A stretch of 34,457 bases of DNA from a virus (taxonomy: Duplodnaviria > Heunggongvirae > Uroviricota > Caudoviricetes): positions 1 through 34,457 of IMG/VR virus record IMGVR_UViG_2908572912_000001. One strand, given 5' to 3'. The position numbers and the translations under genes are program-made. The notes under the pieces are model-generated. The model had not been told where the DNA came from. It saw only the letters and a program-made list of their open reading frames with translations, and searched no databases. How positions within the stretch are numbered: the first letter of the stretch is position 1; every line of letters starts with the position of its first letter. Below, piece after piece: positions 3,711 to 34,457 of the stretch.

Positions 3711-3732
3711 CAATATTTAACACATGGAGAGA

Positions 3733-13819: not shown

Positions 13820-13839
13820 TGTTCATTCCACGGCCAAAA

Positions 13840-14060: not shown

Positions 14061-14207
14061 CTGCATGTCACAACGTGCATCTACGCCATCAAACCACGTC
14101 AAATAATCAATTATGACGCAGGTATCGTATTAATTGATCTGCATCAACTTAACGTAAAAACAACTTCAGACAATACAAATCAGCGACACTGAATACGGGG
14201 CAACCTC

Positions 14208-14764: not shown

Positions 14765-15058
14765 ATGAAAAAAATGTTGTTTTCTGCCGCTCTGGCAATG
14801 CTTATTACAGGATGTGCTCAACAGACGTTTACTGTTGGAAACAAACCGACAGCAGTAACACCAAAGGAAACCATCACCCATCACTTCTTCGTTTCGGGAA
14901 TTGGACAGGAGAAAACTGTTGATGCAGCCAAAATTTGTGGCGGCGCAGAAAATGTTGTTAAAACAGAAACCCAGCAAACATTCGTAAATGGATTGCTCGG
15001 TTTTATTACTTTAGGCATTTATACTCCGCTGGAAGCGCGTGTGTATTGCTCACAATAA
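14765..15058 (+). CDS. bor: Bor lipoprotein (serum-resistance moron), 97 aa
   Basis: MKKMLFSAALAMLITGCAQQTFTV... lipobox LITGC, near-identical to lambda Bor/DLP12 BorD; track ORF starts at an upstream alternative codon. Confidence 0.9.
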   Translation: MKKMLFSAALAMLITGCAQQTFTVGNKPTAVTPKETITHHFFVSGIGQEKTVDAAKICGGAENVVKTETQQTFVNGLLGFITLGIYTPLEARVYCSQ

Positions 15059-15089
15059 TTGCATGAGTTGCCCATCGATATGGGCAGCT

Positions 15090-15551
15090 CTATCTGCACT
15101 GCTCATTAATATACTTCTGGGTTCCTTCCAGTTGTTTTTGCATAGTGATCAGCCTCTCTCTGAGGGTGAAATAATCCTGTTCAGCGGTGTCTGCCAGTCG
15201 GGGGGAGGCTGCATTATCCACGCCGGAGGCGGTGGTGGCTTCACGCACTGACTGACAGACTGCTTTGATGTGCAACCGACGACGACCAGCGGCAACATCA
15301 TCACGCAGAGCATCATTTTCAGCTTTCGCATTAGCTAACTCCTTCGTGTATTTTTCATCCAGTGCAGCAACATCACGCTGGCGCATCTGCATGTCAGTAA
15401 TTGCCGCGTTCGCCAGCTTCAGTTCTCTGGCATTTTTGTCGCGCTGGGCTTTGTAGGTAATGGCGTTATCACGGTAATGATTAACAGCCCATGACAGGCA
15501 GACGATGATGCAGATAACCAGAGCGGAGATAATCGCGGTTACTCTGTTCAT
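15090..15551 (-). CDS. Rz: Rz spanin (inner-membrane subunit)
   Basis: [49 protein letters not shown]... matches lambda Rz/RzpD. Confidence 0.9.
15149..15331 (-). CDS. Rz1: Rz1 spanin (outer-membrane lipoprotein), embedded in Rz in another frame
   Basis: [51 protein letters not shown]; lipobox VVGC and proline-rich region. Confidence 0.85.
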
Positions 15552-16045
15552 TGCTGACCCCACAAACAGATTTCACGCTCAATCTCACGACGAGTCATGA
15601 GACCTTTCCATTGCTTACCGCCAGCATATGTCCAGCGACGTAACTGATCACATGCGCCTTTGATATCGCCCTGGTTTATTTTGCGAAGAAGCGTCGATGT
15701 TCTGAAATTGCCAGCACCCACGTTGTAAACGAATGAGTAAAGAGCGCCGCGCGTTGTTTCCGGTATATCGACTTCGATGTACGGGTTAATTTGTCTGGCG
15801 ACAGTGGCAAGGTCTTTATTCAAGAGTGCTTTGCATTCTGCTTTGGTATACGTTTTACCGAGCATGATGTCTTTTCCTGTATGCCCGTGACATACAGTCC
15901 ATACACCAACAATATCTTTGTATGGTATGTAGCTGACACCTTCCAGACCATCGTTACCACTTGGGCCAGTGATTAACACTGATGCTATAGCAATTGCTCC
16001 GCCACCAATAGCAGCAGCAACGGCTTTTCGTAATGATGGAGGCAT
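15548..16045 (-). CDS. R: SAR endolysin (lysozyme R, phage 21 / DLP12 RrrD type)
   Basis: 165 aa with N-terminal signal-anchor-release segment [24 protein letters not shown] followed by a T4-lysozyme-like catalytic domain. Confidence 0.9.
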
Positions 16046-16260
16046 TATTCACCTCTCGCAGCCTTGCGCTTATCTTCTTTAATCTTGAAATAAAGGTTTG
16101 TCAGGTACGTCAGCAGGCCAAATACCAGGCTACCCAGCACACCTATTGCTGCCCACTGTGAGGGCGTGACTTTATCGAGCAGCTGTAAAAACCAGTAACC
16201 GGCACTACCTGCTGAGGTGCCATAGGCGACACCCGTTGTTAACTTATCCATGGATTTCAT
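16045..16260 (-). CDS. S: Class II pinholin (S21 / EssD type), 71 aa with dual start MKSM
   Basis: [71 protein letters not shown], two TM segments. Confidence 0.9.
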
Positions 16261-16361
16261 AACCCCACCTCGCAGACAAAGCGGGTGTAAATTGAGGGAA
16301 TACTACGAAACGTAACAGACTCGGAGTCAGTGAATAACTCAGGTATTGGGTTATCAGCTAA

Positions 16362-16405
16362 TATCGAGACTCAAAAAATGGAAAAACCCGCTCGACGGCG
16401 GGTTT
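16362..16405 (-). terminator. Strong rho-independent terminator about 100 nt upstream of S on the late strand (tR'-like)
   Basis: Minus-strand hairpin aaacccgccgtcgagcgggttt followed by tttttccatttttt. Confidence 0.5.
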
Positions 16406-16833
16406 AAGCTGTGTGACGAAGTAACCACTCTTAACAGCATAACCAATTTTTTACGTACGTAAACCACAAAATGATATTTGCGAGAATGCTACCGAGTATT
16501 GAAAACACCACTACAAATACATAAGCAAATCTCAACAAATAACCAGCAAATAATTTCCAGCGTTATTTTTAGCCGATTTAAATTGAACCTTCAAATTACA
16601 GAGCACTTATAAATAACAGCCGTTAATATAAATTGGCTAATAGATTTATTTTTATTCAGCCAAGAGCCATGAATAGGATTCGATAGAAAAAAGTTCAGAT
16701 AAAAATAGAGATCTACTTCACAAATCAAACGAGAAACCAAAACTTACATCTTGAAATAATCACATTGATTAGATGAATATTTATCGCGCAGTGACATCAT
16801 TTTTTAATAATAGTTCAAAAAAAAGGGCTCACG

Positions 16834-17916
16834 ATGAAAAAATTAACAGTGGCAATTTCTGCTGTAGCTGCATCAGTACTGATGGCGATGTCTGCTCAGG
16901 CAGCTGAAATTTATAATAAAGACAGTAACAAGCTGGATCTATATGGGAAAGTTAATGCCAAGCACTACTTCTCCTCTAATGATGCAGATGATGGTGATAC
17001 TACTTATGCCCGTCTTGGCTTCAAAGGTGAAACCCAAATCAACGATCAACTGACTGGTTTCGGTCAGTGGGAATATGAATTCAAAGGCAACCGCGCTGAA
17101 TCTCAAGGCTCCTCCAAAGACAAAACCCGTCTTGCATTTGCAGGCCTGAAATTCGGGGACTACGGCTCAATCGATTACGGCCGTAACTACGGTGTAGCAT
17201 ATGACATCGGTGCGTGGACTGACGTTCTGCCAGAATTCGGTGGCGATACCTGGACCCAAACAGATGTGTTCATGACTGGTCGCACCACTGGTGTTGCAAC
17301 TTATCGTAACAACGACTTCTTTGGTCTGGTTGATGGTCTGAACTTTGCTGCTCAGTATCAGGGTAAAAATGACCGCACTGACGTAACTGAAGCTAATGGT
17401 GATGGTTTCGGTTTCTCCACTACTTATGAGTATGAAGGATTCGGTGTAGGTGCAACCTATGCTAAATCTGACCGCACTAATAATCAGGTTATCTACGGTA
17501 ACAACAGCCTGAATGCATCTGGTCAAAATGCTGAAGTATGGGCAGCTGGTCTGAAATATGATGCGAACAACATCTATCTGGCCACCACCTATTCTGAAAC
17601 CCAGAACATGACTGTTTTTGGTAATAACCATATTGCCAACAAAGCACAAAACTTCGAAGCTGTTGCACAATATCAGTTCGACTTCGGCCTGCGTCCATCC
17701 GTTGCTTACCTGCATTCTAAAGGAAAAGACTTGGGTGTTTGGGGTGATCAGGACCTGGTTGAATATGTTGATGTAGGTGCAACCTATTACTTCAACAAAA
17801 ATATGTCCACTTTTGTTGACTACAAAATCAACCTGATTGATAAGAGCGATTTCACGAAAGCATCTGGCGTTGCTACCGATGATATCGTTGCTGTAGGTAT
17901 GGTTTACCAGTTCTAA
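16834..17916 (+). CDS. nmpC: OmpC/OmpD-family general porin NmpC, apparently intact (signal peptide, C-terminal ...VYQF)
   Basis: 360 aa, signal peptide [23 protein letters not shown], porin beta-barrel signature and terminal Phe; lies between Q and the lysis cassette on the opposite strand, as in DLP12. Confidence 0.9.
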
Positions 17917-19984: not shown

Positions 19985-20150
19985 CCTCCGCAGAGATCAA
20001 ACGCTGGATGCAAAAAAACGCAGGTGCATTTCTGCATCTGTGGCAAGGCGAGGAGTTCAACTTGTGGTCGCATATAATTTCCCAATCATATGCGCAGAAG
20101 TCACCGCAGGGTGTTCAGGCCAACGGTGACGGTATTATTGCTTATTGATT
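19985..20150. repeat. Copy A of a ~150-bp imperfect direct repeat (blocks AGGTGCATTTCTGCATCTGTG ... GCGCAGAAGTCACCG..GTTCAGGC ... AT-rich)
   Basis: Hand alignment with 21470-21625: 21/21 identical first block, second block with hairpin whose loop contains GTTCAGG in both copies. Confidence 0.6.
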
Positions 20151-20400
20151 ATGATTTTTCAATTTCATCAATAACCTTGTGATAGACAATACCAGAAAGG
20201 CCAACAGACAGTGGATGTTCATGAAATATTGGCTCATTTGCATAAACCCAATGCCCGACAAATTCTTCTGGGCTTGATATGTATAACTCACGAAGAAAAT
20301 GGAGATCCCTCTCTACAACTAATTTCGTATCGTCCAAGAGCGCTGCATTTACGCTAGTTTTATGGCTGTGCATTAATTTACATTTGGTGAAGGACATCAT
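20149..20400 (-). CDS. Hypothetical protein (83 aa)
   Basis: ORF only; AT-rich, no recognisable motif. Confidence 0.4.
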   Translation of the reverse strand: MMSFTKCKLMHSHKTSVNAALLDDTKLVVERDLHFLRELYISSPEEFVGHWVYANEPIFHEHPLSVGLSGIVYHKVIDEIEKS

Positions 20401-20459
20401 GGCAAAAGCTCCTTTTTCTTATGAATCCATATGTTAGCTAAATTGGAGAGACACAGTAG

Positions 20460-21074
20460 CTAACGTTGTTTAATAACATTCTGACGCAAATGTGGCAATA
20501 CTCGACTCCACTTATCATCCTGCCACGGCTGGAATTTTACATGTGCCGTTTCTCTGGCGAGGATTGCTCGCGCTCTGGTGAGTATCTGGGGATATTCTTG
20601 CTCGATGGAAGTGAAGCGACCAGCTTCACGATGCTCCGCAACCTGAAGAAGAGGAGTAACGTTCTGGCAGGCGGTTAACATCGCATCCCCAGCTCGCCAT
20701 AACCAAGCAAGTGTGCAAAGTTCGTTATCAGTGAATTGTTTTGTGATCGGGGATTGTTGAACTTCTCGATCGAGAATATCCAGAACCCAGCGGCGGAACT
20801 CTTTGGCTACAGGAGTTCGTGCAAACATGGCGATCAAATGGGCTCCGCGAAGGCTAAATACTCGAGACTCCTGCATTCCACGAGGGGTGGTCACTTTGAC
20901 CACCCTTGTCATCATATCTGTAAATTCATCTGAGTGACGGGAGTAAATGCGCTGAACTGCTTTATCGTCCGCATATTCCAGAGCTAAACCAACTTCAGTG
21001 GCAGTAAGCCAAATTCTGTTATTGTGGCAAATTGGGGTAAACGTCGTTTTGTGGAATGCTAATTGAGTAGTCAT
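20460..21074 (-). CDS. Bro-N domain DNA-binding protein (Roi/antirepressor-like)
   Basis: N-terminal ...ICHNNRIWLTATEVGLALEYADDKAVQRIYSRHSDEF... fits the Bro-N fold pattern; sits in the nin region like HK022 roi. Confidence 0.65.
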   Translation of the reverse strand: MTTQLAFHKTTFTPICHNNRIWLTATEVGLALEYADDKAVQRIYSRHSDEFTDMMTRVVKVTTPRGMQESRVFSLRGAHLIAMFARTPVAKEFRRWVLDILDREVQQSPITKQFTDNELCTLAWLWRAGDAMLTACQNVTPLLQVAEHREAGRFTSIEQEYPQILTRARAILARETAHVKFQPWQDDKWSRVLPHLRQNVIKQR

Positions 21075-21228
21075 AGTTTCACCTCATCAGGTTAACCATC
21101 ACCACCAACGACGCCAATCGACTGGTGGTGAACTGTGCAAGGTTGGCGTAACCGGCTACTCAAATCCGGCGCTCCCGAAGAAGCCCTCACACAGCCCACC
21201 ATAATTTGGGCGTAGCCGTGCTTAGCGC

Positions 21229-21252
21229 ATAAAAAAACCGCTTAACGCGGTA
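21229..21252 (-). terminator. Rho-independent terminator on the minus strand after the NACHT cassette (accgc gttaa gcggt + T7)
   Basis: 5-bp GC stem with a 7-nt T-run on the minus strand. Confidence 0.4.
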
Positions 21253-21469
21253 TGCGTTGAGTAGTATTCCGGGACGCCAATCCCGTGTGCCGATTTTGCG
21301 GCAACGCACAGAATATATCCCCAGATAAATCATGTCGTCAACCCCAGTAAATGGACACCATGATGATCACAGCCATAGCTGCTACAACAGTTACAACTAC
21401 CTCAGGCCAAAACATAACGATTTCCATATCACCTTTAGCCGCCAGACGAATAGAGACTCCCAATTCTGG

Positions 21470-21625
21470 CTGTCGAAGTAAAACACCGAATGTAAAAAAT
21501 CGTAGGTGCATTTCTGCATCTGTGAATGGAGAAGATAGGTTGGATTGTATGTGCGCATAAACGTCCCCGTTTAGCGCAGAAGTCACCGGAGTTGTTCAGG
21601 CTCCGGCTTATTAATATTGCCTACT
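21470..21625. repeat. Copy B of the ~150-bp direct repeat; includes hairpin ccggag ttgttcagg ctccgg
   Basis: See copy A. Confidence 0.6.
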
Positions 21626-21685
21626 TACAATTAATTTTTCAACTGTTAGAAACTTATAATTAGCTGTCTCTTTGTAACTATCAAT

Positions 21686-23581
21686 TTAATTATTTTTCTT
21701 TAACTTGAAATTTCTTCCCATTGCTAGTGTTCTTCGAAGATTCGAATCATAAGCTGGTTGATAATATCTATCATAAAAATCCTTAATTGTCTGATGGTAA
21801 GTATCCAGCATCAAACCATAAAACCCCATGACCTTAAGATAATCCACCAAGGGAAATAAATAATCATCAGTCTGAACATCAGTATCAATATTATTTTTTT
21901 GTTTTTTAACTTCAAATTTGTATAAGTTTAACTCACCCTTATCCATCGTGCATGAAAAAAGGTCGTCAAAAATCAAATCAATTTTTGTCATAGGAACTCG
22001 TTCTTTTCCAGACATTATAGGTAGAATATCAATACCTAAGAGCGAACCTAATACAAAGTCGTAATGAAGCGAAATCACTGAGTCATTCGATGTCGAGTTG
22101 CCTTTGATAAATACTCTACTTAGTGCCGAGTCAAAAACATTCTCAACTCTCTCTCTCGTCATGTTTGCGACATCTACAACCCCCATATCACGAGAAGCTT
22201 TTATTGTGATTTCATCTATAAATGCTTTGGAATCTAGTGAATGTAAAAACAACATGAAGTTATCTAACTGTTCAGAGCATTTAATAGCCACCATAAGATT
22301 TTCGTATATATCTTTTTTATACTCAATCGGTAAATTTGCTACCGCAAAAGCAGCATAAAATTCTTGCACTGATTTATGCAGAAAAACATACCTATTATTT
22401 CCCTCAGGTTGGATAAGGCAAGTTATCTCAATAAGATCATCTATAAAGTTTGATGCATCTTCTTTAAGATAACCTTCTGTTTCAATAGCATCTTCAGCAT
22501 ATCTAAGCAACTCCTCTCCCCAAAACTCAAATTTCTCCTCAATCAGTGCGTTATAGCAAATAGCTGAAAAACACAATTTAGCTTTTTCACCAATAATGTT
22601 TGATTTTTTCTCGCGCGTATATACTTTTATTTTATCATGCCTTGCATATAAGGTGTCAAAGAGGCTTCGATAAAACTCTATTATATTATTTGGAATATCA
22701 TTCATATAAGGATAACAATAATACAAAAGAGTAACTAAAATTGGATTGCAAATAGTTCCCTCAAGTTCTTCTTTATCACATAGTAAATCCGCCAAGACTT
22801 TAAACGAGGCATCACTACTTGAGAATCTGTCATTTTTCGATAAAGAATGAAGAATACAAATCTTATCAGAAATATTTAGCTTATCTATAAAAATATTATA
22901 CACATCAGTAGTATAACATATATCTGTATTTGGTCTCGTTGTTGCGATAATTGGTGTGTTAAAATGATAATGAATGTTTTTTATTTCATTCATCATCATA
23001 GTTCGCTCTTCATGTTTAACCTCATCAAATCCATCCAACATTAAAACGACTCTTTGGGATTGCAGTAATATTTTCAAGCTATCCTCTGAACACCCCACAC
23101 CAAATGAATTAAGAATGTCTGCCAGATAAGCAATAATATTTGCATTCTTCACCCTTCTTAATTCAATAAAAAAAGGCATCCGTTCTGATTTTTTTATTTC
23201 CTCGCTAAACAACTTGCGTAAAATAGTACTTTTCCCTTGCCCCGCTATACCGACTATATTTACAATACCATGAAATGGTAAAGTGACCCCATCTTTTATA
23301 ACGACCTTGTCTTTATTAGATGCCACCTCAACAGTTAACGGATAATAAATATCATCTAAAAAAATATCATAATCAGCGTTGTGCAAAGTTCTCATTTTCA
23401 GAGATGGTAGCACATGCTTTCTTAAATAATTTTCTCTTCCGAGGGGATCATTTAATTGTTCGAGTATAACCTTGCCTTCATCTAGGTCCCTAGCCCAAGG
23501 TTTAGAGAGCAATACTTCTGTTATTTTTTCCGCAGCTTTTCCTACTGTGCTATTAATAATAGTCGCAAGAAACTCATCCAT
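21686..23581 (-). CDS. NACHT-family STAND NTPase (bacterial NLR-like), candidate antiphage protein; ~110-aa N-terminal region, central NACHT, ~350-aa C-terminal region
   Basis: Walker A GIAGQGKST, NACHT-type Walker B VVLMLDGFDEV, sensor-1-like IIATTRP; GC ~30 percent island. Start placed at ATG (MDEFL...) preceded by GGTGA; track alt-start gives 23638. Confidence 0.8.
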   Translation of the reverse strand: MDEFLATIINSTVGKAAEKITEVLLSKPWARDLDEGKVILEQLNDPLGRENYLRKHVLPSLKMRTLHNADYDIFLDDIYYPLTVEVASNKDKVVIKDGVTLPFHGIVNIVGIAGQGKSTILRKLFSEEIKKSERMPFFIELRRVKNANIIAYLADILNSFGVGCSEDSLKILLQSQRVVLMLDGFDEVKHEERTMMMNEIKNIHYHFNTPIIATTRPNTDICYTTDVYNIFIDKLNISDKICILHSLSKNDRFSSSDASFKVLADLLCDKEELEGTICNPILVTLLYYCYPYMNDIPNNIIEFYRSLFDTLYARHDKIKVYTREKKSNIIGEKAKLCFSAICYNALIEEKFEFWGEELLRYAEDAIETEGYLKEDASNFIDDLIEITCLIQPEGNNRYVFLHKSVQEFYAAFAVANLPIEYKKDIYENLMVAIKCSEQLDNFMLFLHSLDSKAFIDEITIKASRDMGVVDVANMTRERVENVFDSALSRVFIKGNSTSNDSVISLHYDFVLGSLLGIDILPIMSGKERVPMTKIDLIFDDLFSCTMDKGELNLYKFEVKKQKNNIDTDVQTDDYLFPLVDYLKVMGFYGLMLDTYHQTIKDFYDRYYQPAYDSNLRRTLAMGRNFKLKKNN

Positions 23582-23968
23582 TTTTTCACCACATTCATTA
23601 ACCAATACGTGGTGCATTCTTACAAGACTCAGTAACAATTGTCAATCATAGGTTTTCGCATGATTGCAAAACGCCATAAACAATTGTAGCACCATAATTT
23701 TAAACACTATAAATATACAACCTTCCTACAAGCATTCAGTACATCGCTTAATCACAGGGCTTGAATATATAGTAAGGAATCGATATTAATCACCTCATCT
23801 ACTTTAAACATCTTACACACCTATAATTTATAATAGTCAACACGAGGTCATCATATTAAACATGCAATTACAAACATTCATTTTTATATAAATTTTCATG
23901 ATTTAACCGTAGAGCGACGGTAATAAATTTCATATACAAGGATTTAAGCTCCCATACGTTTTCTATTA

Positions 23969-24148
23969 TTAAAAATAACATACCGTTCGCCAGACCTTAC
24001 CATCAATGACCAGGATTCCTGCCCGCGCCATTTTTGCCGCAGCCTGATTTATGCTGGTTAATGTCACACCTGTTGTCGCAGCAACGTCCGGCGCACAGAA
24101 GCTCTTGTGCGTCCCCAGGTAATGAATAATTGCTTCTTTTCCCGTCAT
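23969..24148 (-). pseudogene. ren: ren, 3'-truncated (about 55 Ren-like codons then 4 foreign codons and stop)
   Basis: MTGKEAIIHYLGTHKSFCAPDVAATTGVTLTSINQAAAKMARAGILVIDGKVWRTV matches the lambda Ren N-terminus; ATGA overlap with P stop; homology ends where the AT-rich island begins. Confidence 0.7.
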
Positions 24149-24786
24149 ACACTGGCTCCTTTCAGTCCGAACTTAGCTTTGATTTCTGCAATCTTCGCCA
24201 GAGCCTGTGCACGATTTAGAGGTCTACCGCCCATGACAGGAAGTTGTTTTACTGGTTCAGGTATAGCCTCACCACGGTTAATTCTCGCAGTCATATGGGC
24301 AAGTTCATCGGCAGCCTTGCGCCGTAATTCCGAGTCAGTCAACGCATTAGCCCGCATGTTCTGATACAGGTTGGTAACCAGCCAGTAGTGCGCGTTTGAT
24401 TTCCACGGATAAGACTCTGCGTCCGGATACAGGCCACGCTTCCGGCAATACTCGTAAACCATATCAACCAGCTCGCTGGCGTTTGGCAGTCCGGCGGTAA
24501 CGGATGCTTCTTCCCGGCACCAGGCGACAAACTGCCCGGGTGATGGCAGGAATGGTCGATTCTGCCGACGGGCTACGCGCATTCCTGCGTTAACCTGTTC
24601 CATTGTGGTGATCCCGTTTTCCCGGAAAGCCAGAACCCACTGGCGGCGGATTTCGTTCAGTTCGTTCTGATCCCGGTTAGCCAGGCTCGCAGGGAAAGTT
24701 GCCAGTAACTGTCTGAACACACCGTTGATGATCTGCGCTACCTGCTGTATCTGCTGGTTTAATCTTTCCACCAGTGGCTGAGACAA
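24145..24786 (-). pseudogene. P: Replication protein P with intact C-terminal ~205 residues but disrupted 5' end; no O gene present
   Basis: ...QQVAQIINGVFRQLLATFPASLANRDQNELNEIRRQWVLAFRENGITTMEQ...AKIAEIKAKFGLKGASV matches lambda P; the P-type ATGAAAA start lies 52 nt upstream in a different frame, continuous with the upstream HTH ORF. Confidence 0.8.
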
Positions 24787-24925
24787 TTTTCATTACATAG
24801 CGGGCATCAATTCCGCCACCGTGTAGCCAACGCCAAACTGTGGGTTGGGCTACACCGCATAGATCTGCCAGTCGTTTTTGACTACCTGTAATACTGATTG
24901 CGAGTTGAATGGTTTGATTTGTCAT
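24677..24925 (-). CDS. Cro-like HTH protein; the native C-terminus is uncertain because the frame runs through the P start region
   Basis: MTNQTIQLAISITGSQKRLADLCGVAQPTVWRWLHGG has a Cro/CI-type HTH; divergent from cI across an operator region. Confidence 0.5.
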   Translation of the reverse strand: MTNQTIQLAISITGSQKRLADLCGVAQPTVWRWLHGGGIDARYVMKIVSATGGKIKPADTAGSADHQRCVQTVTGNFPCEPG

Positions 24926-25035
24926 TATCAATTCCTATTGGTATTGCAATGAATAAATAATAGCAATGCGTATTAATCCAAGCAATAGCAAAACGTGTTT
25001 TGACCATCAATACGCAAGCGTATAAATTAAAACTT
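24926..25035. promoter_or_regulatory. Immunity-region divergent promoters and operators: pR candidate on minus strand (-35 TTGCTT 24980-24985, 17-bp spacer, -10 TATTAT 24957-24962); pRM candidate on plus strand (-35 TTGACC 24999-25004, -10 TATAAA 25021-25026) giving near-leaderless cI
   Basis: Consensus-like sigma70 hexamers with 16-17 bp spacing; spacers contain TAGCAAT/GCAATAGCAA and TACGCAAGCGTA motifs. Confidence 0.55.
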
Positions 25036-25728
25036 ATGAAAAAAGAAACTCTTGCTGATCGCTTAAACCTAGCGATGGAACAATCTGGAATGTCTCAAGG
25101 CGCTCTTGCAAAGGCGTCTGGCGTAGCTCAACCCACAATCTGGAGACTGACAAGCGGCAATGCGCGCGGCTCAACAAAAATTGTTGAAATAGCTAATGCA
25201 TTGGGTGTTCGAACAGAATGGCTCTCTTCAGGCATAGGCCCGATGAGAAATGACGGTCAACAATCAGGGAAGCCTGCTGTCAGCCATTCCAAATACTTCA
25301 AAATTGACGTTCTTGATATAGAAGTCAGTGCCGGGCCGGGTGTAATCAACCGTGAGTTTGTAGAAGTTCTACGCTCGGTTGAATACTCGTTTGACGATGC
25401 TCGTCACATGTTCGATGGCAGGAAGGCGGAAAATATCCGCATCATTAACGTGCGTGGTGACAGCATGTCAGGAACGATCGAACCAGGTGATCTGCTGTTC
25501 GTTGATATCACGGTTAAATCTTTCGACGGTGATGGTATCTATGCGTTTCTGTATGACGACACCGCCCATGTAAAACGCCTGCAAATGATGAAGGATAAGC
25601 TGCTGGTTATCTCTGATAACAAGAGCTACTCACCGTGGGACCCGATCGAGAAAGACGAGATGAACCGCGTGTTCATCTTCGGGAAAGTCATCGGGAGCAT
25701 GCCGCAGACATATAGAAAGCATGGGTAG
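25036..25728 (+). CDS. cI: CI-type prophage repressor (N-terminal HTH, C-terminal LexA/S24 autopeptidase-like domain)
   Basis: HTH MSQGALAKASGVAQPTIWRL; C-terminal VRGDSMSGTIEPGDLLFVD and HVKRL (Ser/Lys dyad pattern). Track alt-start at 25000. Confidence 0.85.
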   Translation: MKKETLADRLNLAMEQSGMSQGALAKASGVAQPTIWRLTSGNARGSTKIVEIANALGVRTEWLSSGIGPMRNDGQQSGKPAVSHSKYFKIDVLDIEVSAGPGVINREFVEVLRSVEYSFDDARHMFDGRKAENIRIINVRGDSMSGTIEPGDLLFVDITVKSFDGDGIYAFLYDDTAHVKRLQMMKDKLLVISDNKSYSPWDPIEKDEMNRVFIFGKVIGSMPQTYRKHG

Positions 25729-25857
25729 AAATCAGAACAAAATTATGCACTTCGCTTTTCAGCTTACTGTAGTAAGGCAATAAATTAGGCTTGACGTTAG
25801 CTATCAGGTGCACAACAATAATTGTTGAATAATAGGTTTTTTTAACTAGGTGATAAC

Positions 25858-26997
25858 ATGGCAGCGGTTGAATTTCAATTGTCTAGGAAGATGATTGATT
25901 GGATAGCAAATTCTCAAGGAGTTTCTATCGAAACTCTTGCTGACCAAGTCATGCCCAAAAAGATTAATAAATTTCTTAACGGAGTGGTAAGTAAATCCGC
26001 AGCAGAAAAACTGGCAAAAATTGGAGGAATCCCTTTCGGTTTTTTATTTCTTGAAACGCCACCAACTCCAGCCAAACCCAAGATCCCTGACTTAAGGCAA
26101 GCTATAAATAGCCGTGAGTTAGGAAAAGATTTTTTTGATGTTTACTATGATATAGAATATAAACTTGAGTGGTACAAAGACTATTTAAGAGAAAATGGTA
26201 ATGATGATCCACTCGATTTTATTGGTAAATTTAAATTTAATAGAAAATTAAATTATAAGGTTGTTGCTACAGACATAGCAAACACAATACATTTTGATAT
26301 ACAAAAAGAGATAAAAAATGTCACTTTTGAGAGCTATTTTTCTAAAGTGGCAAAACTAATAGAAGACACTGGCGTATTAGTTTTCAAGAATGGTGTTGTG
26401 GGTAATAATAATAAAAGAAAACTTGACACGCGAGAGTTTCGTGGTTTCTGTATATCTGATAGCGTTGCTCCGATCATTTTTGTAAATAGCTCGGACGCGT
26501 TATCTGCGCAGGTATTTACATTATTTCATGAGGTGGCTCATCTTTGGCTTGGAGTCGATGGAGTCTCTGGGTGGGACACAGAAAAAAACATAGAATCTTT
26601 TTGTAATAAAGTTGCTGCTGAAATCTTAATGCCTGATAATCTCTTCAAATCTTTCTGGCTTAATGCATCCAGCGATAATAATTATTATCGAGTAAAAGAG
26701 GTTTCTAAGTTATTTAAGGTTAGTGATTTCGCTTGTGCAATCAAAGCGTTACAATTAGATTTGATAGAAAGAAACACTTTGGAGATAATTAAAGATCAAG
26801 CTTACAATAAGCCCAAAAAAGAATCCAATGGTGGTTCTTTCTTTAACACATTACCTGTTCGTAACAGTCCAAAACTTACGAATATAATAATTTCCAAAGC
26901 AATGTCTCAACAATTACCATTAAGGGAAGCAGGCGTACTGCTAAATGTAAAAGCAGATACAGTTGTTGAATTTTATAAAAAACGAGAATCTCTATGA
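25858..26997 (+). CDS. HTH domain fused to ImmA/IrrE-family HExxH metallopeptidase (COG2856-like)
   Basis: HEVAHLWLG zinc-binding motif at about residue 215; N-terminal HTH-like segment; GC ~33 percent; located where rexA-rexB sit in lambda. Confidence 0.75.
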   Translation: MAAVEFQLSRKMIDWIANSQGVSIETLADQVMPKKINKFLNGVVSKSAAEKLAKIGGIPFGFLFLETPPTPAKPKIPDLRQAINSRELGKDFFDVYYDIEYKLEWYKDYLRENGNDDPLDFIGKFKFNRKLNYKVVATDIANTIHFDIQKEIKNVTFESYFSKVAKLIEDTGVLVFKNGVVGNNNKRKLDTREFRGFCISDSVAPIIFVNSSDALSAQVFTLFHEVAHLWLGVDGVSGWDTEKNIESFCNKVAAEILMPDNLFKSFWLNASSDNNYYRVKEVSKLFKVSDFACAIKALQLDLIERNTLEIIKDQAYNKPKKESNGGSFFNTLPVRNSPKLTNIIISKAMSQQLPLREAGVLLNVKADTVVEFYKKRESL

Positions 26998-27506
26998 TTC
27001 ATAATGGAAAATTCTTAATTGATAGTAATGTCTTCATAGAGGCAAAAAACTTTGCATATAACTTCAATTATTGCAAAATATTTTGGGATTTTCTTCTCGC
27101 TTTACACATTAATGGTCTGATTTATAGCATTAATGCTGTAAAAAAATAACTATGTGCAAAAGATGATCCATTGTGTAAATGGATTAAAGAAGAGTTACCA
27201 TCATCATTCTTCGAAGATGAGCATAGTTCAATAGAAAATTATGCAAAGTTAATAAATTGGTCAACTAAATTAGATGTTACCGAAAAGGCAAAGTTTGATT
27301 TTGCAAGCCATGAAAAAGCAGATGCTTTTTTAATAGCCCATGCGATGACACATGGATATACTATTATTACCCATGAGAAACCATCCGGTGGCAAACCTAA
27401 AAAAAGAATAATGATCCCGGATGCTGCTGCTTCTCACGGCGTTAAGACATTAACACTATATGAATTTCTTCCAAGATACGCTAGTCATAATTTTTCTTTG
27501 AAATAA
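26994..27506 (+). pseudogene. DUF4411-like PIN-like nuclease gene, translationally coupled (ATGA) to the ImmA gene, interrupted by an in-frame TAA at 27147-27149
   Basis: Codons 1-51 MIHNGKFLIDSNVFIEAKNF... (PIN-like Asp in LIDSN) then TAA, then the same frame continues 118 codons to 27506 (...ADAFLIAHAMTHGYTIITHEKP...). Frame verified codon by codon. Confidence 0.65.
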
Positions 27507-27511
27507 AACGT

Positions 27512-27538
27512 CCCGGCCACCGTGCCGGGTTTTCTTTT
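27512..27538 (+). terminator. Rho-independent terminator closing the cI/rex-position operon (cccggc caccgt gccggg + ttttctttt)
   Basis: Perfect 6-bp GC stem and T-run. Confidence 0.7.
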
Positions 27539-27639
27539 GCCTCCCCTCATCACACACACCGTTCAAAAAACCACCACAACCCCGCTTCAGTTATCGCTAT
27601 GCGATGCAAGTCACAAAATTAATTCTTTTTGCTATCAAA

Positions 27640-27710
27640 TATTTAATATCAAAACACATCTAGCAATAGCAATAAGTATTGATATCATCAATAGCAATAG
27701 CTATTATCAC
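27640..27710 (+). promoter_or_regulatory. pL-like promoter with operator repeats: -35 TTGATA (27679-27684), 17-bp spacer tcatcaatagcaatagc, -10 TATTAT (27702-27707); flanking CTAGCAATAGCAATAAG and CAATAGCAATAGCTATT repeats
   Basis: Near-consensus hexamers with 17-bp spacing; same GCAATAGC motif as at oR. Confidence 0.55.
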
Positions 27711-27780
27711 CATGTCGCAACAACACAACGATACGGCAATCACCTGATTCACCGTTGCGATGACCGCTTAGATCCGCAGC

Positions 27781-28191
27781 TTGAATTTCAGCAGGCTCCG
27801 GGGAGTGCGAGGGGTGAAGCGGACGCGTGAACGTCGGTGTGACCAGCTGAAATCAACTCAACACTTCATACCTCAGTCGCTTCAACGAGGCGGCTTAGTT
27901 ATGACAACCGGCGGCCATCCACCGCCTGAATACGCGCAGAAGTCTTTATATGTTCAGCAGCCCAGCTTACGGGCAGGAGTTTTTATGGTTCATCAACATT
28001 ACGGAACGCAGACCGTTAATCGCGGTGCGGTCATGCCAGGAATGCTGGTCAAACACAAAGATGGTACCTGGACTGCATCAGCTAATTTACGCGGACGGCT
28101 TTATCTGCATCGCGGCATCGAGCGCACTTATACCCGTGATTTGCTCGTAGAAGTTTTTCTCGACGGACGCGGTAACGGCCTGAATCACTAA
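27781..28191 (+). CDS. Hypothetical early-left protein; N-terminal Arg-rich stretch (RLRGVRGVKRTRERR) if the TTG start is used; alternative ATG at 27901
   Basis: First ORF after the pL-like promoter, the place of N in lambda; no similarity to lambda N beyond an Arg-rich motif. Confidence 0.35.
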   Translation: MNFSRLRGVRGVKRTRERRCDQLKSTQHFIPQSLQRGGLVMTTGGHPPPEYAQKSLYVQQPSLRAGVFMVHQHYGTQTVNRGAVMPGMLVKHKDGTWTASANLRGRLYLHRGIERTYTRDLLVEVFLDGRGNGLNH

Positions 28192-28267
28192 CCCCTCTTT
28201 CCTGTTTTCCTAATCAGCCTGGCATTTCGCGGGCGATATTTTCACAGCCATTTTCAGGAGTTCAGCC

Positions 28268-28564
28268 ATGAACGCTTATTACATTCAGGATCGTCTTGAG
28301 GCTCAGAGCTGGGCACGTCACTACCAGCAGATCGCCCGTGAAGAGAAAGAGGCAGAACTGGCAGACAACATGGAAAAAGGTCTTCCACAGCACCTGTTTG
28401 AATCACTCTGTATCGATCATTTGCAACGCTGCGGGGCCAGCAAAAAAGCCATTACCCGTGCGTTTGATGACGATGTTGAGTTTCAGGAGCGCATGGCAGA
28501 ACACATCCGGTACATGGTTGAAACCATTGCTCACCACCAGTTTGATATTGATTCAGAGGTATAA
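28268..28564 (+). CDS. gam: Gam (RecBCD inhibitor), short GamS form
   Basis: [54 protein letters not shown]... matches lambda Gam; the long-form N-terminal extension is in a different frame here. Confidence 0.9.
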
Positions 28565-28569
28565 AACGG

Positions 28570-29355
28570 ATGAGTACAGCACTCGCAACGCTGGCAGGGA
28601 AGCTGGCTGAACGTGTCGGCATGGATTCTGTCGACCCACAGGAACTGATCACCACTCTTCGCCAGACGGCATTTAAAGGTGATGCCAGCGATGCGCAGTT
28701 CATCGCATTGTTGATCGTCGCCAACCAGTACGGCCTTAATCCGTGGACGAAAGAAATTTACGCCTTCCCTGATAAGCAGAACGGCATTGTTCCGGTGGTG
28801 GGCGTTGATGGCTGGTCCCGCATCATCAATGAAAACCAGCAGTTTGATGGCATGGACTTTGAGCAGGACAATGAATCCTGTACATGCCGGATTTACCGCA
28901 AGGACCGTAATCATCCGATCTGCGTTACCGAATGGATGGATGAATGCCGCCGCGAACCATTCAAAACCCGCGAAGGCAGAGAAATCACGGGGCCGTGGCA
29001 GTCGCATCCCAAACGGATGTTACGGCATAAAGCCATGATTCAGTGTGCCCGTCTGGCCTTCGGATTTGCTGGTATCTATGACAAGGATGAAGCCGAGCGC
29101 ATTGTCGAAAATACTGCATACACTGCAGAACGTCAGCCAGAACGCGACATCACTCCGGTTAACGATGAAACCATGCAGGAGATTAACACTCTGCTGATCG
29201 CCCTGGATAAAACATGGGATGACGACTTATTGCCGCTCTGTTCCCAGATATTTCGCCGCGACATTCGCGCATCGTCAGAACTGACACAGGCCGAAGCAGT
29301 GAAAGCTCTTGGATTCCTGAAACAGAAAGCCACTGAGCAGAAGGTGGCAGCATGA
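28570..29355 (+). CDS. bet: Bet (Red-beta single-strand annealing recombinase)
   Basis: 261 aa, matches lambda Bet along its full length from memory. Confidence 0.95.
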
Positions 29356-30032
29356 CACCGGACATTATCCTGCAGCGTACCGGGATCGACGTGAGAGCTG
29401 TCGAACAGGGGGATGATGCATGGCACAAATTACGGCTCGGCGTCATCACCGCTTCAGAAGTTCACAACGTGATAGCAAAGCCCCGATCAGGAAAGAAGTG
29501 GCCTGACATGAAAATGTCCTACTTCCACACCCTGCTGGCTGAGGTTTGCACCGGTGTGGCTCTGGAAGTTAACGCTAAAGCGCTGGCCTGGGGAAAACAG
29601 TACGAGAACGACGCCAGAACCCTGTTTGAGTTCACTTCCGGCGTAAATGTTATTGAATCCCCGATCATCTATCGCGACGAAAGTATGCGCACCGCCTGCT
29701 CTCCCGATGGTTTATGCAGTGACGGCAATGGCCTTGAGCTGAAATGCCCGTTTACCTCCCGGGATTTCATGAAGTTCCGGCTCGGTGGTTTCGAGGCCAT
29801 AAAGTCGGCTTACATGGCCCAGGTGCAGTACAGCATGTGGGTGACGCGAAAAGATGCCTGGTACTTTGCCAACTATGACCCGCGTATGAAGCGTGAAGGC
29901 CTGCATTATGTCGTGGTTGAGCGGGATGAAAAGTACATGGCGAGTTTTGACGAGATGGTGCCGGAGTTCATCGAAAAAATGGACGAGGCACTGGCTGAAA
30001 TTGGTTTTGTATTTGGGGAGCAATGGCGATGA
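29352..30032 (+). CDS. exo: Exo (Red-alpha 5'-3' exonuclease)
   Basis: 226 aa, matches lambda Exo along its full length from memory. Confidence 0.95.
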
Positions 30033-30190
30033 AGCATCCTCACGATAATATCCGGGTAGGCACGATCACTTTCGTCTACTCCGTTACAAAGCGAGGCTGG
30101 ATATTTCCCGGCCTTTCTGTTATCCGAAATCCCCTGAAAGCACAGCGGCTGGCTGAGGAGATAAATAATAAACGGGGGCTGTATGACTGA
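30029..30190 (+). CDS. Small lambda-like ORF downstream of exo (53 aa, [53 protein letters not shown])
   Basis: ATGA overlap with exo stop and with the methyltransferase start; lambda carries a similar ORF here. Confidence 0.5.
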
Positions 30191-30740
30191 TTTCACCGGA
30201 AGCAATACTCCTGCCGAACATCGCGACAGCTGGCGCACACCACCAGAGATTTTTGCTGCGCTTAATGCAGAGTTCGTTTTTCAACTTGATGCTGCCGCCA
30301 GCGAAAAAAACCGACTATGTCGGCTTTTTATCTCACAGGAGCAGAACACATTAACCACTTCATGGCCTGAAGCAATGGGATATGCCTCTGGTTATGTCTG
30401 GTTGAATCCACCATACAGCAATATTTCCCCTTTTGTGAAAAAGGCAGCCACTGAAAACAAATTCAGTAGTGTGGGATGTGTAATGTTATTGCCTGCTGAC
30501 ACATCTGTCGGATGGTTTCATGAAGCGATACAAACCGCCAGTGAGGTCAGATTCATCACGGCAGGACGACTGGCATTTATTAACCCACTCACTGAGAAAC
30601 CCGTCAGTGGAAATAATAAAGGCTCGATGCTCATTATCTGGCACCCATACCCCCGTACACACTGCCACTTTACGACCGTTGATCGTGGAGAGTTGATGGC
30701 GTTCGGCTCAAGGATTCTTGCCCGTCGGGAGGCTGCATGA
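30183..30740 (+). CDS. Phage-type orphan DNA N6-adenine methyltransferase (small Dam-like, NPPY motif)
   Basis: 185 aa with motif YVWLNPPYSN (motif IV of amino-methyltransferases) and an upstream FVFQLDAAAS motif-I-like region. Confidence 0.75.
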   Translation: MTDFTGSNTPAEHRDSWRTPPEIFAALNAEFVFQLDAAASEKNRLCRLFISQEQNTLTTSWPEAMGYASGYVWLNPPYSNISPFVKKAATENKFSSVGCVMLLPADTSVGWFHEAIQTASEVRFITAGRLAFINPLTEKPVSGNNKGSMLIIWHPYPRTHCHFTTVDRGELMAFGSRILARREAA

Positions 30741-30820
30741 CAACCACTGAATGCATTTTTCTGGCAGCGGGCTTCATATTCTGTGTGCTTATGCTTGCCG
30801 ACATGGGACTTGTTCAATGA
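30737..30820 (+). CDS. Possible 27-aa hydrophobic peptide (MTTTECIFLAAGFIFCVLMLADMGLVQ), overlapping neighbours by ATGA at both ends
   Basis: Hand translation; single predicted TM helix; coding status unproven. Confidence 0.3.
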   Translation: MTTTECIFLAAGFIFCVLMLADMGLVQ

Positions 30821-31032
30821 CACCTCAGCAAGAAAACGCCCTTCGCAGTATTGCCCGTCAGGCTAATTCTGAAATCAAAAAAGCCAGACAGCAGTTTCCG
30901 GATAAAAACGTCGATGACATTTGCCGTAGCGTACTGAAGAAGCACCGCGAAACGGTAACGCTGATGGGATTCACACCGACTCACTTAAGTCTGGCAATCG
31001 GCATGTTAAACGGCGTCTTTAAGGAACGGTGA
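30817..31032 (+). CDS. Hypothetical protein (71 aa)
   Basis: ORF with ATGA coupling; track alt-start at 30751. Confidence 0.45.
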   Translation: MTPQQENALRSIARQANSEIKKARQQFPDKNVDDICRSVLKKHRETVTLMGFTPTHLSLAIGMLNGVFKER

Positions 31033-31052
31033 ACATGAAAAGCAAAATCATC

Positions 31053-31078
31053 AGGGAGCTACAGGCTCCTTTTTTATT
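31053..31078 (+). terminator. Rho-independent terminator (ggagc tacag gctcc + ttttttatt)
   Basis: GC stem and T-run. Confidence 0.5.
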
Positions 31079-31130
31079 ATTCGCATTCACCCTCAAGCGT
31101 ATTAACCAACAATTCAGGGATTAATGGAAG

Positions 31131-31349
31131 ATGGCAGACATCATTGATTCAGCATCAGAAATCGAAGAATTACAGCGCAATACAGCAATAAAAATGCGTC
31201 GTCTGAACTACCAGACTGTATCTGCCACTCATTGTTGTGAGTGTGGCGATCCGATAGATGAGCGAAGACGCCTGGTCGTTCAGGGTTGTCGGACTTGTGC
31301 AAGTTGCCAGGAGGAGATCGAACTTAAGAACAAACAATGGGGATTGTGA
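31131..31349 (+). CDS. TraR/DksA-family C4 zinc-finger protein
   Basis: 72 aa with CxxC...(17)...CxxC (CCECGDPIDERRRLVVQGCRTCASC). Confidence 0.75.
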   Translation: MADIIDSASEIEELQRNTAIKMRRLNYQTVSATHCCECGDPIDERRRLVVQGCRTCASCQEEIELKNKQWGL

Positions 31350-31396
31350 TGGCCTCAAAGCAGCAAATTTCAACATCGTCCAACTGAGGTGTAAAA

Positions 31397-31636
31397 ATGT
31401 TCAGAATCATTTTTCCTAACACCTGGTACGTCGACCACCACGGCACTCCCTGCAAAATCCTGCGTTCTACCCACAACAAAGTTCACTACATCCGAAAAGG
31501 CAGAACATGTATCGCCAGCATGTTCCGCTTTAATCATGACTTTGAACCTGTGAATAAAGCTGATGCAGATCGAATAGCAGAAGAGATCGAAACGGCAGAA
31601 CACATTAAGAAGTTACGTGCCATACGCAGAAAATAG
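31397..31636 (+). CDS. Hypothetical phage protein (79 aa)
   Basis: ORF only. Confidence 0.45.
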   Translation: MFRIIFPNTWYVDHHGTPCKILRSTHNKVHYIRKGRTCIASMFRFNHDFEPVNKADADRIAEEIETAEHIKKLRAIRRK

Positions 31637-31713
31637 AAAAATTGATAAATTCAATACTGCATTTCTCAGCATGAACCGCCCCGGGTTTCCTGGAGAGTGT
31701 TTTATCTGTGAAC

Positions 31714-32604
31714 TCAGGCTGCCAGATCATCGTTTCCGATGGAAGCATAATAAGCTTTTTCTGCTTCTGCCGGAGGAGTATGGCCCAGCCTTTCCAGCAA
31801 TCGTCGATTGTTATACCAGTCCACCCACGTGAGTGTGGCCAGTTCCACTTCTGCACGGTTTTTCCAGCTCTTACGGTGTATTACCTCCGCTTTGTAAAGG
31901 CCATTGATGCTCTCCGCCATCGCGTTGTCATACGAGTCGCCTGTACTTCCTGTTGATGCCAGTAATCCGGCTTCCTTAAGCCGCTGTGTGTAGGCCAGCG
32001 ATACATACTGAGAACCTTTATCACTGTGATGGACTGTGCCGGACGGTCGACGGGCCCATAACGCCTGCTCCAGAGCATCCAGCACAAATGTCGTTTCCAT
32101 AGACGATGAGACCCGCCACCCCACGATGTATCCGGCAAACACATCAATGATGAACGCCACATAGACGACCCCCTGCCATGTGCTGACGTAAGTAAAATCA
32201 GCCACCCACAACTGGTCAGGACGTTCTGCCACGAACTGACGGTTTACGCGGTCGCCTGCGACAACGGCTTTCCGGCTGATGGTCGTACGGACCTTTTTAC
32301 CCCGGAGAACACCGGCAAGTCCCATAACCGCCATGAGACGTGCCACAGTGCATCTGGCCACTCTGATACCTTCCCGTAACAACTGACGCCAGACTTTACG
32401 CACACCGTATACCTTGTGATTTTCATCGTATACGCGCTGTATCTCTTTCTTCAGCCAGTCATCGCGCTGCGCACGGGCACTGCGTTTATCCGGATGATGT
32501 CGCTGTTGCTGACAGTGGTAATACGTTGACGGGGCAATATGCAGTTCGCTGCATAGCGGTCCGACCCCGTACTGCTCACGCAGCTTATCCAGCAGTGGCA
32601 TCAT
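31714..32604 (-). CDS. IS629-like transposase OrfB (DDE)
   Basis: 296 aa with DDE integrase-core motifs ([19 protein letters not shown]). Confidence 0.9.
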
Positions 32605-32927
32605 TTTTTCCAGAGGCGGTCGAACTCCGCCTTCGCAAAATAAGCGGAAGCCTGGCGAAGGATATCGTTACTGCGGCGCAGTTCACGATTTTCACGTTCC
32701 AGCTCTTTCAGACGCTGACGTTCAGCGGTGGTGAGCCCGCCATCACCGCCTCCGGTATCCCGCTCATGCTGGCGTACCCAGACACGCAGAGTCTCCGGTG
32801 TACAGCCAATCTTTGGGGCAATGGAACAAATTGCCGCCCACTGTGAGTCATATTCGCCCTGACTTTCCAGAACCATACGAATCGCCCTCTGACGGACTTC
32901 GGGGGAAAAACGAGTATTTTTAGTCAT
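32601..32927 (-). CDS. IS629-like transposase OrfA
   Basis: [57 protein letters not shown]... as remembered for IS629/IS1203 OrfA. Confidence 0.9.
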
Positions 32928-33088
32928 CCTGTTTACCTCTTTCTCAGGGAGTTTAGTCTCCAGGATTCCCGGGGCGGTTCAGCATTAAATTTATCTCTAT
33001 GACCAGTCAAGAGATGTACCTGCCATGAGCTTAATATCATGTCAGATATATCGGTCACAAACTCCCTCAGCAGCTAAGAGGAGGACAA

Positions 33089-33325
33089 ATGTCTCGACTA
33101 ATCACTTTACAGGACTGGGCTAAAGAAGAATTTGGGGACTTAGCACCAAGTGAGCGAGTTCTGAAAAAATACGCGCAAGGGAAAATGATGGCCCCACCCG
33201 CTATAAAAGTTGGTCGCTACTGGATGATTGACCGAAATTCCCGTTTTGTAGGAACGCTTGCAGAACCGCAACTCCCAATAAACGCAAACCCAAAACTCCA
33301 ACGGATAATCGCTGATGGCTGCTAG
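33089..33325 (+). CDS. xis: Excisionase-like protein (Xis) overlapping the integrase start
   Basis: 78-aa ORF immediately upstream of and overlapping int; name from position. Confidence 0.65.
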   Translation: MSRLITLQDWAKEEFGDLAPSERVLKKYAQGKMMAPPAIKVGRYWMIDRNSRFVGTLAEPQLPINANPKLQRIIADGC

Positions 33326-34457
33326 ACCCCGATCTCACAAAATCTCTATACCCAATTTATATTGCAAATTAGATAAGCGAACCGGAAAGGTATATTGGCA
33401 ATACAAACATCCACTATCCGGTCGTTTTCATAGCTTAGGAACTGATGAGAATGAAGCAAAACAAGTTGCTACTGAAGCAAATACCATTATTGCTGAACAA
33501 CGTACCCGACAAATATTAAGCGTCAATGAGCGTCTGGAAAGAATGAAAGGCAGGCGCTCAGACATTACGGTGACAGAATGGCTTGATAAATATATTTCTA
33601 TCCAGGAGGACAGGCTGCAACATAATGAACTAAGACCCAACTCCTATCGGCAAAAAGGCAAACCCATTCGTCTTTTCCGTGAGCATTGTGGAATGCAACA
33701 CCTCAAGGATATTACCGCACTTGATATTGCCGAAATAATTGATGCTGTAAAGGCTGAAGGTCATAACAGGATGGCGCAAGTCGTGAGAATGGTGTTGATC
33801 GACGTCTTCAAAGAAGCACAACACGCAGGACATGTTCCGCCAGGATTTAACCCAGCGCAGGCAACAAAACAACCGCGAAATCGAGTAAACCGCCAAAGAT
33901 TGTCACTGCCCGAATGGCAGGCAATATTTGAAAGCGTAAGCAGACGGCAGCCCTATTTAAAATGCGGCATGCTACTTGCTCTTGTTACTGGACAACGTTT
34001 AGGCGATATCTGCAATTTGAAATTCTCTGATATATGGGACGACATGTTGCACATTACTCAGGAAAAAACCGGTTCAAAACTTGCTATTCCGCTTAACCTG
34101 AAATGCGATGCTCTGAATATTACCCTTCGTGAAGTTATATCTCAGTGCAGGGATGCTGTTGTTAGTAAATATCTGGTCCATTACCGTCACACTACCTCTC
34201 AAGCAAACAGAGGAGACCAGGTTTCTGCAAATACTCTGACAACGGCTTTTAAAAAGGCCCGGGAAAAATGTGGCATAAAATGGGAGCAAGGAACTGCGCC
34301 CACATTTCATGAGCAGCGATCTCTGTCAGAACGGTTATATCGGGAACAGGGTCTGGATACGCAAAAATTGTTAGGCCATAAATCCAGAAAAATGACCGAC
34401 CGATACAATGATGATCGTGGTAAAGACTGGATTATCGTAGATATCAAAACAGCATAG
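33315..34457 (+). CDS. int: Tyrosine integrase (e14 IntE / phage 21 type, icd-site specific family); stop codon is the last three bases of the window
   Basis: 380 aa; C-terminal catalytic region ...HEQRSLSERLYREQGLDTQKLLGHKSRKMTDRY (R..H.R..Y pattern); similarity to IntE recalled from memory. Confidence 0.9.
   Translation: MAARPRSHKISIPNLYCKLDKRTGKVYWQYKHPLSGRFHSLGTDENEAKQVATEANTIIAEQRTRQILSVNERLERMKGRRSDITVTEWLDKYISIQEDRLQHNELRPNSYRQKGKPIRLFREHCGMQHLKDITALDIAEIIDAVKAEGHNRMAQVVRMVLIDVFKEAQHAGHVPPGFNPAQATKQPRNRVNRQRLSLPEWQAIFESVSRRQPYLKCGMLLALVTGQRLGDICNLKFSDIWDDMLHITQEKTGSKLAIPLNLKCDALNITLREVISQCRDAVVSKYLVHYRHTTSQANRGDQVSANTLTTAFKKAREKCGIKWEQGTAPTFHEQRSLSERLYREQGLDTQKLLGHKSRKMTDRYNDDRGKDWIIVDIKTA

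Follow-up and report, generated by a model that had tools for sequence, protein, structure and literature searches.

The early-right operon of a decaying lambdoid prophage at icd was, with high probability, hit by one illegitimate deletion of 1,731 bp, and the truncation of its ren gene is an unrelated and older event. The prophage occupies most of a 34,457-nt stretch of DNA (hereafter the window) that makes up IMG/VR record IMGVR_UViG_2908572912_000001. What is left after the deletion is best described as pR followed by a truncated cro-like gene (cro'), a P gene with neither start codon nor ribosome-binding site ('P), and a truncated ren (ren'). The lesion is ordinary cryptic-prophage decay. 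The exact deletion allele is new but unremarkable.

One deletion fuses cro to P

Intact relatives of the element have the gene order cI | cro (YdaS-type), YdaT-type cII analogue, O (with the ori iterons inside), P and ren. In megablast searches against phage genomes, the region falls into two blocks that overlap by ~13 nt. Positions 24748-25728 match the 'cI | Cro' region of phages such as PhiR68_2 with 96-99% identity, and positions 23976-24760 match the phage 'P | Ren' region with about 94% identity. In PhiR68_2 itself, 24748-25724 corresponds to cI|cro (98.6%) and 23976-24760 to P|ren (93.4%), and the two matches are 1,731 bp apart, with the cro 3' end, a 'cII' gene, O, and the P 5' end between them. 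Pairwise blastn gives the same offset of 1,731 bp in PhiR68_2, Escherichia coli JML285, and CV839-06 alike. The cro side is 99.7% identical to JML285, and the icd prophage of CV839-06, which lies at the same site, is 99.9% identical to the window over 24748-31675.

A three-way base-level alignment places the deletion junction at 24748-24754 (minus strand), where cro codon 59/60 is fused to P codon 32-34 across an imperfect 7-bp microhomology, GCAG(A/G)TA. The 7-mer is GCAGATA in the window and in cro, and GCAGGTA in P. The cro side reads ...AAACCAGCAGATA|TTCG, the P side reads ...AAGCCGCAGGTA|CAGCAGG, and the window across the junction reads ...AAACCAGCAGATACAGCAGG; the 22-mer AACCAGCAGATACAGCAGGTAG is a sequence tag of the junction. 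At position 24750, the window has the cro-type A, whereas all five intact P alleles compared have G. Therefore, the crossover falls within the last two bases of the microhomology. Such a position would be expected if the deletion was illegitimate and microhomology-mediated.

The deletion removed the last 16 codons of cro (60-75), a 179-aa YdaT-type cII analogue (Pfam YdaT_toxin, 104 bits in the relatives), the entire 339-aa O gene (Phage_rep_O, 116 bits in the relatives), and the start of P with codons 1-31. An earlier note on this DNA had read from the sequence that O is lost and that the start of P is shortened. With the intact relatives as reference, the alignment of the cro-to-P region bears out the former and contradicts the latter, and it adds what the note had missed, namely the loss of the cro tail and of ydaT and the fact that one deletion took them all.

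Three substitutions lie just downstream of the junction in the 'P DNA. We considered and rejected the idea that this cluster reflects decay or error-prone repair, as 56 records annotated with full P match the stretch at 99% or better; the substitutions are, for the most part, standing allelic variation. A Cro-P fusion made by frameshifting was also considered, and no slippery motif is seen by eye at the junction.

The repressor and operators are intact, and cro is truncated

The cI-like repressor gene (25036-25728, plus strand) is intact and encodes a 230-aa protein with Pfam HTH_3 and Peptidase_S24 domains, the latter being the autocleavage domain; the protein is 100% identical to its counterpart in E. 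coli JML285. The divergent promoter/operator region between cI and cro (24926-25035) is 99.4% identical to PhiR68_2 and JML285 and contains the imperfect repeats AATAGCAATGCGTATTAAT / AATACGCAAGCGTATAAAT. The only window-specific base between cI and cro is A at 24955, which is G in three relatives and sits 2 nt downstream of a putative pR -10 hexamer (TATTAT, minus strand). A consensus scan for promoters and terminators over 23600-28400 gave no richer a yield than shuffled sequence and was left unused.

Divergent from the repressor gene is a Cro-like helix-turn-helix gene of the YdaS family, truncated after residue 59 of 75. Its native part (24749-24925, minus strand) is 100% identical to residues 1-59 of JML285 Cro in tblastn and scores 45.5 bits against Pfam YdaS_toxin (cut-off 30; model positions 1-52 of 65), compared with 54.6 bits (model positions 1-60) for the intact gene. 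According to the ORF list and its translation, the open reading frame then runs into P DNA in the wrong frame (24677-24748, minus strand) for 23 codons and a stop, such that the cro' product comprises 59 native and 23 frameshifted residues.

The YdaT-family gene that follows the cro-like gene in the relatives is not found anywhere in the window by tblastn. The YdaS and YdaT (cII analogue) families are those of the switch in the Rac and CP-933P prophages (PMC9986795, PMC11879457). The element thus resembles the racR-ydaS-ydaT switch of these cryptic prophages: its cro-like gene is a YdaS-family member, and the gene it has lost is a YdaT-family member. However, Rac has kept ydaT, which is toxic when derepressed, whereas in the window element ydaT is gone.

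O and ori are absent and P lacks its start

The O gene of the relatives contains five palindromic iterons, TTACC(Y)GAATCAGGTAA, with a spacing of 19-29 bp, followed by a stretch of 33% GC. This is the lambda ori layout. None of it is present in the window: searches by tblastn with two O alleles give no O homologue (E<=1), the ori iteron of the relatives, TTACCYGAATCAGGTAA, has 0 copies with up to 3 mismatches allowed, and tandem repeats are lacking throughout. The claim of the earlier note that the O gene and its ori are absent is hence correct. The note had also pointed to an O homologue or an alternative initiator elsewhere in the element as something to look for; neither was found in the window. 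All window segments map to RefSeq-annotated DNA with 93-100% identity, and the only replication genes annotated in the near-identical DNA (five genomes) are O and P.

The 'P gene (24145-24747, minus strand) is a lambda-P-type helicase-loader gene without start codon, ribosome-binding site, and first 31 codons. In tblastn, P homology is limited to residues 32-233 (24753 to 24148, minus strand) and is 98.5% to the P of E. coli strain 2014C-4135; residues 34-233 are unambiguous, and residues 32-33 fall in the microhomology. The remnant retains the whole Pfam Phage_lambda_P domain (positions 1-162 of 162, 210.9 bits). Its frame is one base off that of the cro-like ORF, which stops at 24677, in agreement with the observation in the earlier note that P is out of frame with that ORF.

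A full-length, translatable P helicase loader is therefore missing from the window. In-frame TTG or GTG codons occur upstream of or in 'P at 24786, 24771, and 24720, but they have no Shine-Dalgarno pairing, compared with -6.6 kcal/mol at the native P start. Therefore, 'P is best read as a pseudogene. Two ATGs inside 'P, at 24603 and 24582, may allow low-level translation of a shorter form. Domain I of lambda P comprises residues 1-29 and is a flexible lasso at the N-terminus, speculated to engage O; domains II-IV span residues ~30 to 233 (PMC12661323). Since domain I ends at residue 29, the 'P break lies at the border of domains I and II. For annotation, both the cro' ORF (24677-24925) and the 'P ORF (24145-24786) are pseudogene remnants of one deletion, not a short P.

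ren was truncated separately, by a cargo cassette

The ren' ORF (23969-24148, minus strand) encodes 59 aa. In tblastn, it matches Ren residues 1-58 of 97, and blastn matches end at a mosaic boundary at 23976. The earlier note had recognized the truncation of ren, and this stands, but had counted it as part of the same damage to the replication genes. The boundary between ren' and the cassette that follows, which carries a gene with a NACHT domain, is identical in six complete genomes, all with full O and P. Therefore, the ren truncation is separate from the 1,731-bp deletion. One of the relatives on this side, strain 2014C-4135, is 99.8% identical to the window over 20100-24754 and has the same truncated ren, annotated as a pseudogene and flanked by full-length O and P on one side and by the same NACHT cassette on the other. 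The comparison indicates that ren was cut by an older mosaic boundary of this cargo cassette. In other genomes, the slot downstream of ren is taken by DUF4041 or SNIPE genes instead.

The NACHT-domain NTPase gene in the cassette (21686-23638, minus strand; Pfam NACHT, 43.9 bits) encodes 650 aa. It contains an A-run at 23168. The window has one 650-aa frame, while strain 2014C-4135 has one more A and an annotation of two ORFs, of 488 and 139 aa. A genuine frameshift, phase variation, or an error in sequencing one of the two genomes may account for the difference. With PADLOC, the NACHT protein has no match, and the matches of the AAA-ATPase and ImmA-like proteins encoded elsewhere in the window are weak or generic.

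The prophage at icd carries further lesions

One end of the window is at ariR-ymgA and the other at the integrase stop codon (34457), and a duplicate of the icd 3' end lies at 3680-3896. The duplicate, which marks the far attachment end, is 96.3% identical to the icd end in CV839-06, where it is annotated as a partial isocitrate dehydrogenase. The prophage site is hence icd, and the counterpart of the element is the intact 50-kb prophage of CV839-06. The xis (33089-33325) and integrase (33315-34457) genes are intact on the plus strand, with 100% nucleotide identity to CV839-06 over 32979-34457. Also intact are gam, bet, exo, cI, quuD, essD, rrrD, rzpD, and nohD, as well as Q and S-R-Rz. The statement of the earlier note that repressor, integrase, recombination, and lysis genes are kept is thus accurate.

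The late region has lost 15.4 kb relative to CV839-06 (blastn), with a junction at 13311-13317 at which the end of nohD (nu1) is joined to a remnant of J; the terminase large-subunit gene through most of J is absent. The earlier note had described this nu1-J deletion as belonging to the element. The deletion is there, but it is not private, as 43 complete genomes have a contiguous match (97.5%) across the nohD-J' junction, among them E. coli B REL606 in its DLP12. DLP12 of E. coli C and of ATCC 8739 has the same junction. The common junction suggests an exchange of late-region DNA between cryptic prophages that occupy different chromosomal sites. With O, ori, full-length P, and terminase-large through most of J all lacking, the earlier verdict that the element is replication- and packaging-defective holds, although the note misread how P begins and what part ren plays.

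At ~10300, about 3.8 kb present in CV839-06 has also been deleted, from the middle of lom up to where the long tail-fibre gene ends. A 1,310-bp IS3-family element (31672-32981, minus strand) is absent at the corresponding CV839-06 site, has 99.5-99.9% matches annotated as IS3 family transposase, and is flanked by a 3-bp GCA target duplication. Judging by its terminal repeats, we take it to be IS629/IS1203-like. It lies between the DUF4222 gene of the early-left genes and xis, in an orientation opposite to early-left transcription, and it may be polar on xis-int expression. The DUF4411 gene (26994-27506), downstream of an ImmA/IrrE-family (CapP-like) gene, is split into ORFs of 51 and 111 aa owing to a G-to-T nonsense change at 27147 relative to CV839-06 and JML285.

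Outside the prophage, an IS3 copy at 724-1980 stands in place of ~2.6 kb of chromosome; the loss covers bluR, bluF, and ycgZ in its 5' part, which CV839-06 has.

Relation to known prophages and distribution of the junction

The closest known object is DLP12, the cryptic prophage of E. coli K-12 and B. As a cryptic lambdoid prophage of the DLP12 kind, the window element has an integrase and an attachment duplicate, has lost head and tail genes with nohD joined to a J remnant, and lacks replication initiation functions. In REL606, DLP12 has no O or ori, and its P is a pseudogene, truncated at the N-terminus, with ren behind it; it shares the nin-rusA-quuD-porin-essD-rrrD-rzpD-iss-ylcI-nohD block and the identical nohD-J' junction, and window positions 11450-17412 are collinear with it at 96.5%. 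The two differ in location. DLP12 of REL606 lies beside intD and ends near appY-ompT, its attachment site being argU, while the window element is at icd. In addition, DLP12 has also lost its immunity region, with a methyltransferase'-'P junction, and keeps just 246 nt of P, whereas the window element has intact cI and operators and about 200 codons of P. Conversely, in the window element cro is truncated and ren is cut by the NACHT cassette.

The CV839-06 icd prophage, the JML285 prophage, and PhiR68_2 share with the window the integrase, the attachment site, the Red genes, the ImmA/DUF4411 pair, cI, and cro, with 99.7-100% identity. In contrast to the window, all three have complete ydaT-O-P, and CV839-06 and PhiR68_2 also have structural genes. 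The P-ren'-NACHT segment of the window belongs to another allele group than these three, with strain 2014C-4135 as its closest match (99.8%).

The prophage of E. coli AR434 carries an independent natural O'-'P deletion of 947 bp, in which the iterons and the P start are gone. It differs in retaining cro, ydaT, and O up to codon 58, and in its junction and immunity type. At its junction (2264-2266 of its locus), O codon 58 is joined to P at about nt 106. The P break points of AR434 and the window are ~10 nt apart, which may be coincidental or may point to a breakpoint hotspot. Loss of O and ori from a lambdoid prophage is thus a recurrent and already known type of lesion.

The junction itself was not found beyond the window. 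In 5,426 complete E. coli genomes, a 2.2-kb query across it has no place with at least 80% coverage; the junction 40-mer and 22-mer have 0 matches in the GTDB species genomes (representatives); and there are 0 matches in IMG/VR. The sole match in JGI metagenomes is an exact 24-nt match on contig Ga0209751_10104305 (1395-1418), which is otherwise dissimilar to the window and which we take as chance. An exact-protein look-up returned no record for cro' (two forms), 'P (three forms), or the NACHT protein. The deletion allele appears to be strain-specific and is known from this one sequence.

Alternative explanations

The reading of the earlier note, that the ATGAAAA start of P is retained and that P has a ~53-nt internal deletion near this start with a shift of frame, has next to no probability. 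The string is present, and the distances given for it are right: GTAGCGCAG starts 53 nt after ATGAAAA in the window and at nt 106 of intact P, which leaves 52-53 nt up to the P homology where intact P has 105. However, ATGAAAA at 24793-24787 is codons 45-46 (Met45-Lys46) of the cro-like gene, and together with the next 44 nt it is identical to cro codons 45-59 of JML285, CV839-06, and PhiR68_2. The region has no similarity to the 5' end of P, and the alignment thus refutes a P-type start here; the P start region is not merely shortened, its start and first 31 codons being gone. It is very unlikely, though the least so of the alternatives considered, that the strain has an ordinary ydaT-O-P and that 1.7 kb were dropped in sequencing or assembly. 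The occurrence of the junction in no other public genome searched would fit such an artefact. On the other hand, assemblers collapse at long repeats, whereas the two sides here share 7 imperfect bases; the same element has other independent decay lesions (two more deletions, an inserted IS, and a nonsense change); and AR434 and DLP12 have comparable natural deletions.

Less likely again than an artefact is a function for the remnant, in which 'P, consisting of domains II-IV without the lasso, would be expressed after derepression and would either be toxic by binding DnaB or serve as a dominant-negative exclusion factor against incoming lambdoid phages. The main DnaB contacts of P are in domains III and IV (PMC12661323), P by itself is toxic through DnaB (PMC4926192), and the break point coincides with the domain I/II border. 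If it were true, the remnant would be a domesticated function and not debris. However, a usable start is missing, pR is repressed in the lysogen such that nothing would be made when exclusion is needed, and the allele occurs in one sequence only and so gives no sign of conservation. In addition, deletion of residues 9-86 of lambda P suppresses P lethality (PMC4926192). We consider it exceedingly unlikely that the element is a working replicon of another design, with 'P acting together with a host or unrecognised initiator and with its origin in another part of the element. Retention of the whole Pfam P domain with 98.5% identity to intact alleles would be in line with this, but 'P lacks its start codon and ribosome-binding site and is in a different frame from cro', iterons and tandem repeats are absent from the entire window, and the near-identical DNA in five RefSeq genomes is annotated without a further replication gene. 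A single illegitimate deletion in a decaying prophage accounts for the region far better than any of these.

Consequences of the deletion

From established lambda biology, cleavage of the repressor would let pR transcribe cro'-'P-ren', but there would be no origin to fire. After derepression, initiation of replication by the element itself would thus be impossible. A helper phage would not rescue replication in trans, because ori acts in cis. Packaging is predicted to be impossible owing to the nohD-J' deletion, and excision is probably poor because an IS lies upstream of xis-int and the cII analogue is gone.

Derepressed lambda prophages that fail to excise kill their hosts by replication, and the survivors are mutated in O, P, or ori (PMC6022878). 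In addition, lambda P alone is lethal through DnaB (PMC4926192), and YdaT is toxic in the Rac prophage (PMC11879457). The deleted interval comprises the pR-proximal host-killing functions of a derepressed non-excisable lambdoid prophage, namely replication from ori, P, and YdaT. As it holds three documented harmful functions, it is plausible that its loss would be tolerated or selected for. Perhaps the loss of ydaT-O-P was indeed favoured by selection, which we judge somewhat short of an even prospect, neutral decay being the other possibility. The laboratory RK- mutants (defective in replicative killing) of non-excisable lambda prophages are alike in that a deletion or insertion in O, P, or ori abolishes replication initiation while immunity is retained (PMC6022878). 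They were selected by heat induction of cI857 prophages, whereas for the window element selection is only inferred.

The element is to be annotated as a cryptic prophage, and the finding has little importance beyond that. It is one more natural case, beside DLP12 and AR434, in which O and ori are lost and the repressor, lysis, and cargo genes are retained, and it fits both known prophage domestication and replicative killing in the laboratory. The retained cargo comprises the NACHT gene, an McrC and AAA-ATPase pair, and the ImmA-family gene. The McrC-like and AAA-ATPase genes (4597-7697) are flanked by the icd duplicate and by tail-fibre remnants, an arrangement shared with CV839-06, and at this locus cargo genes are retained while phage functions decay.
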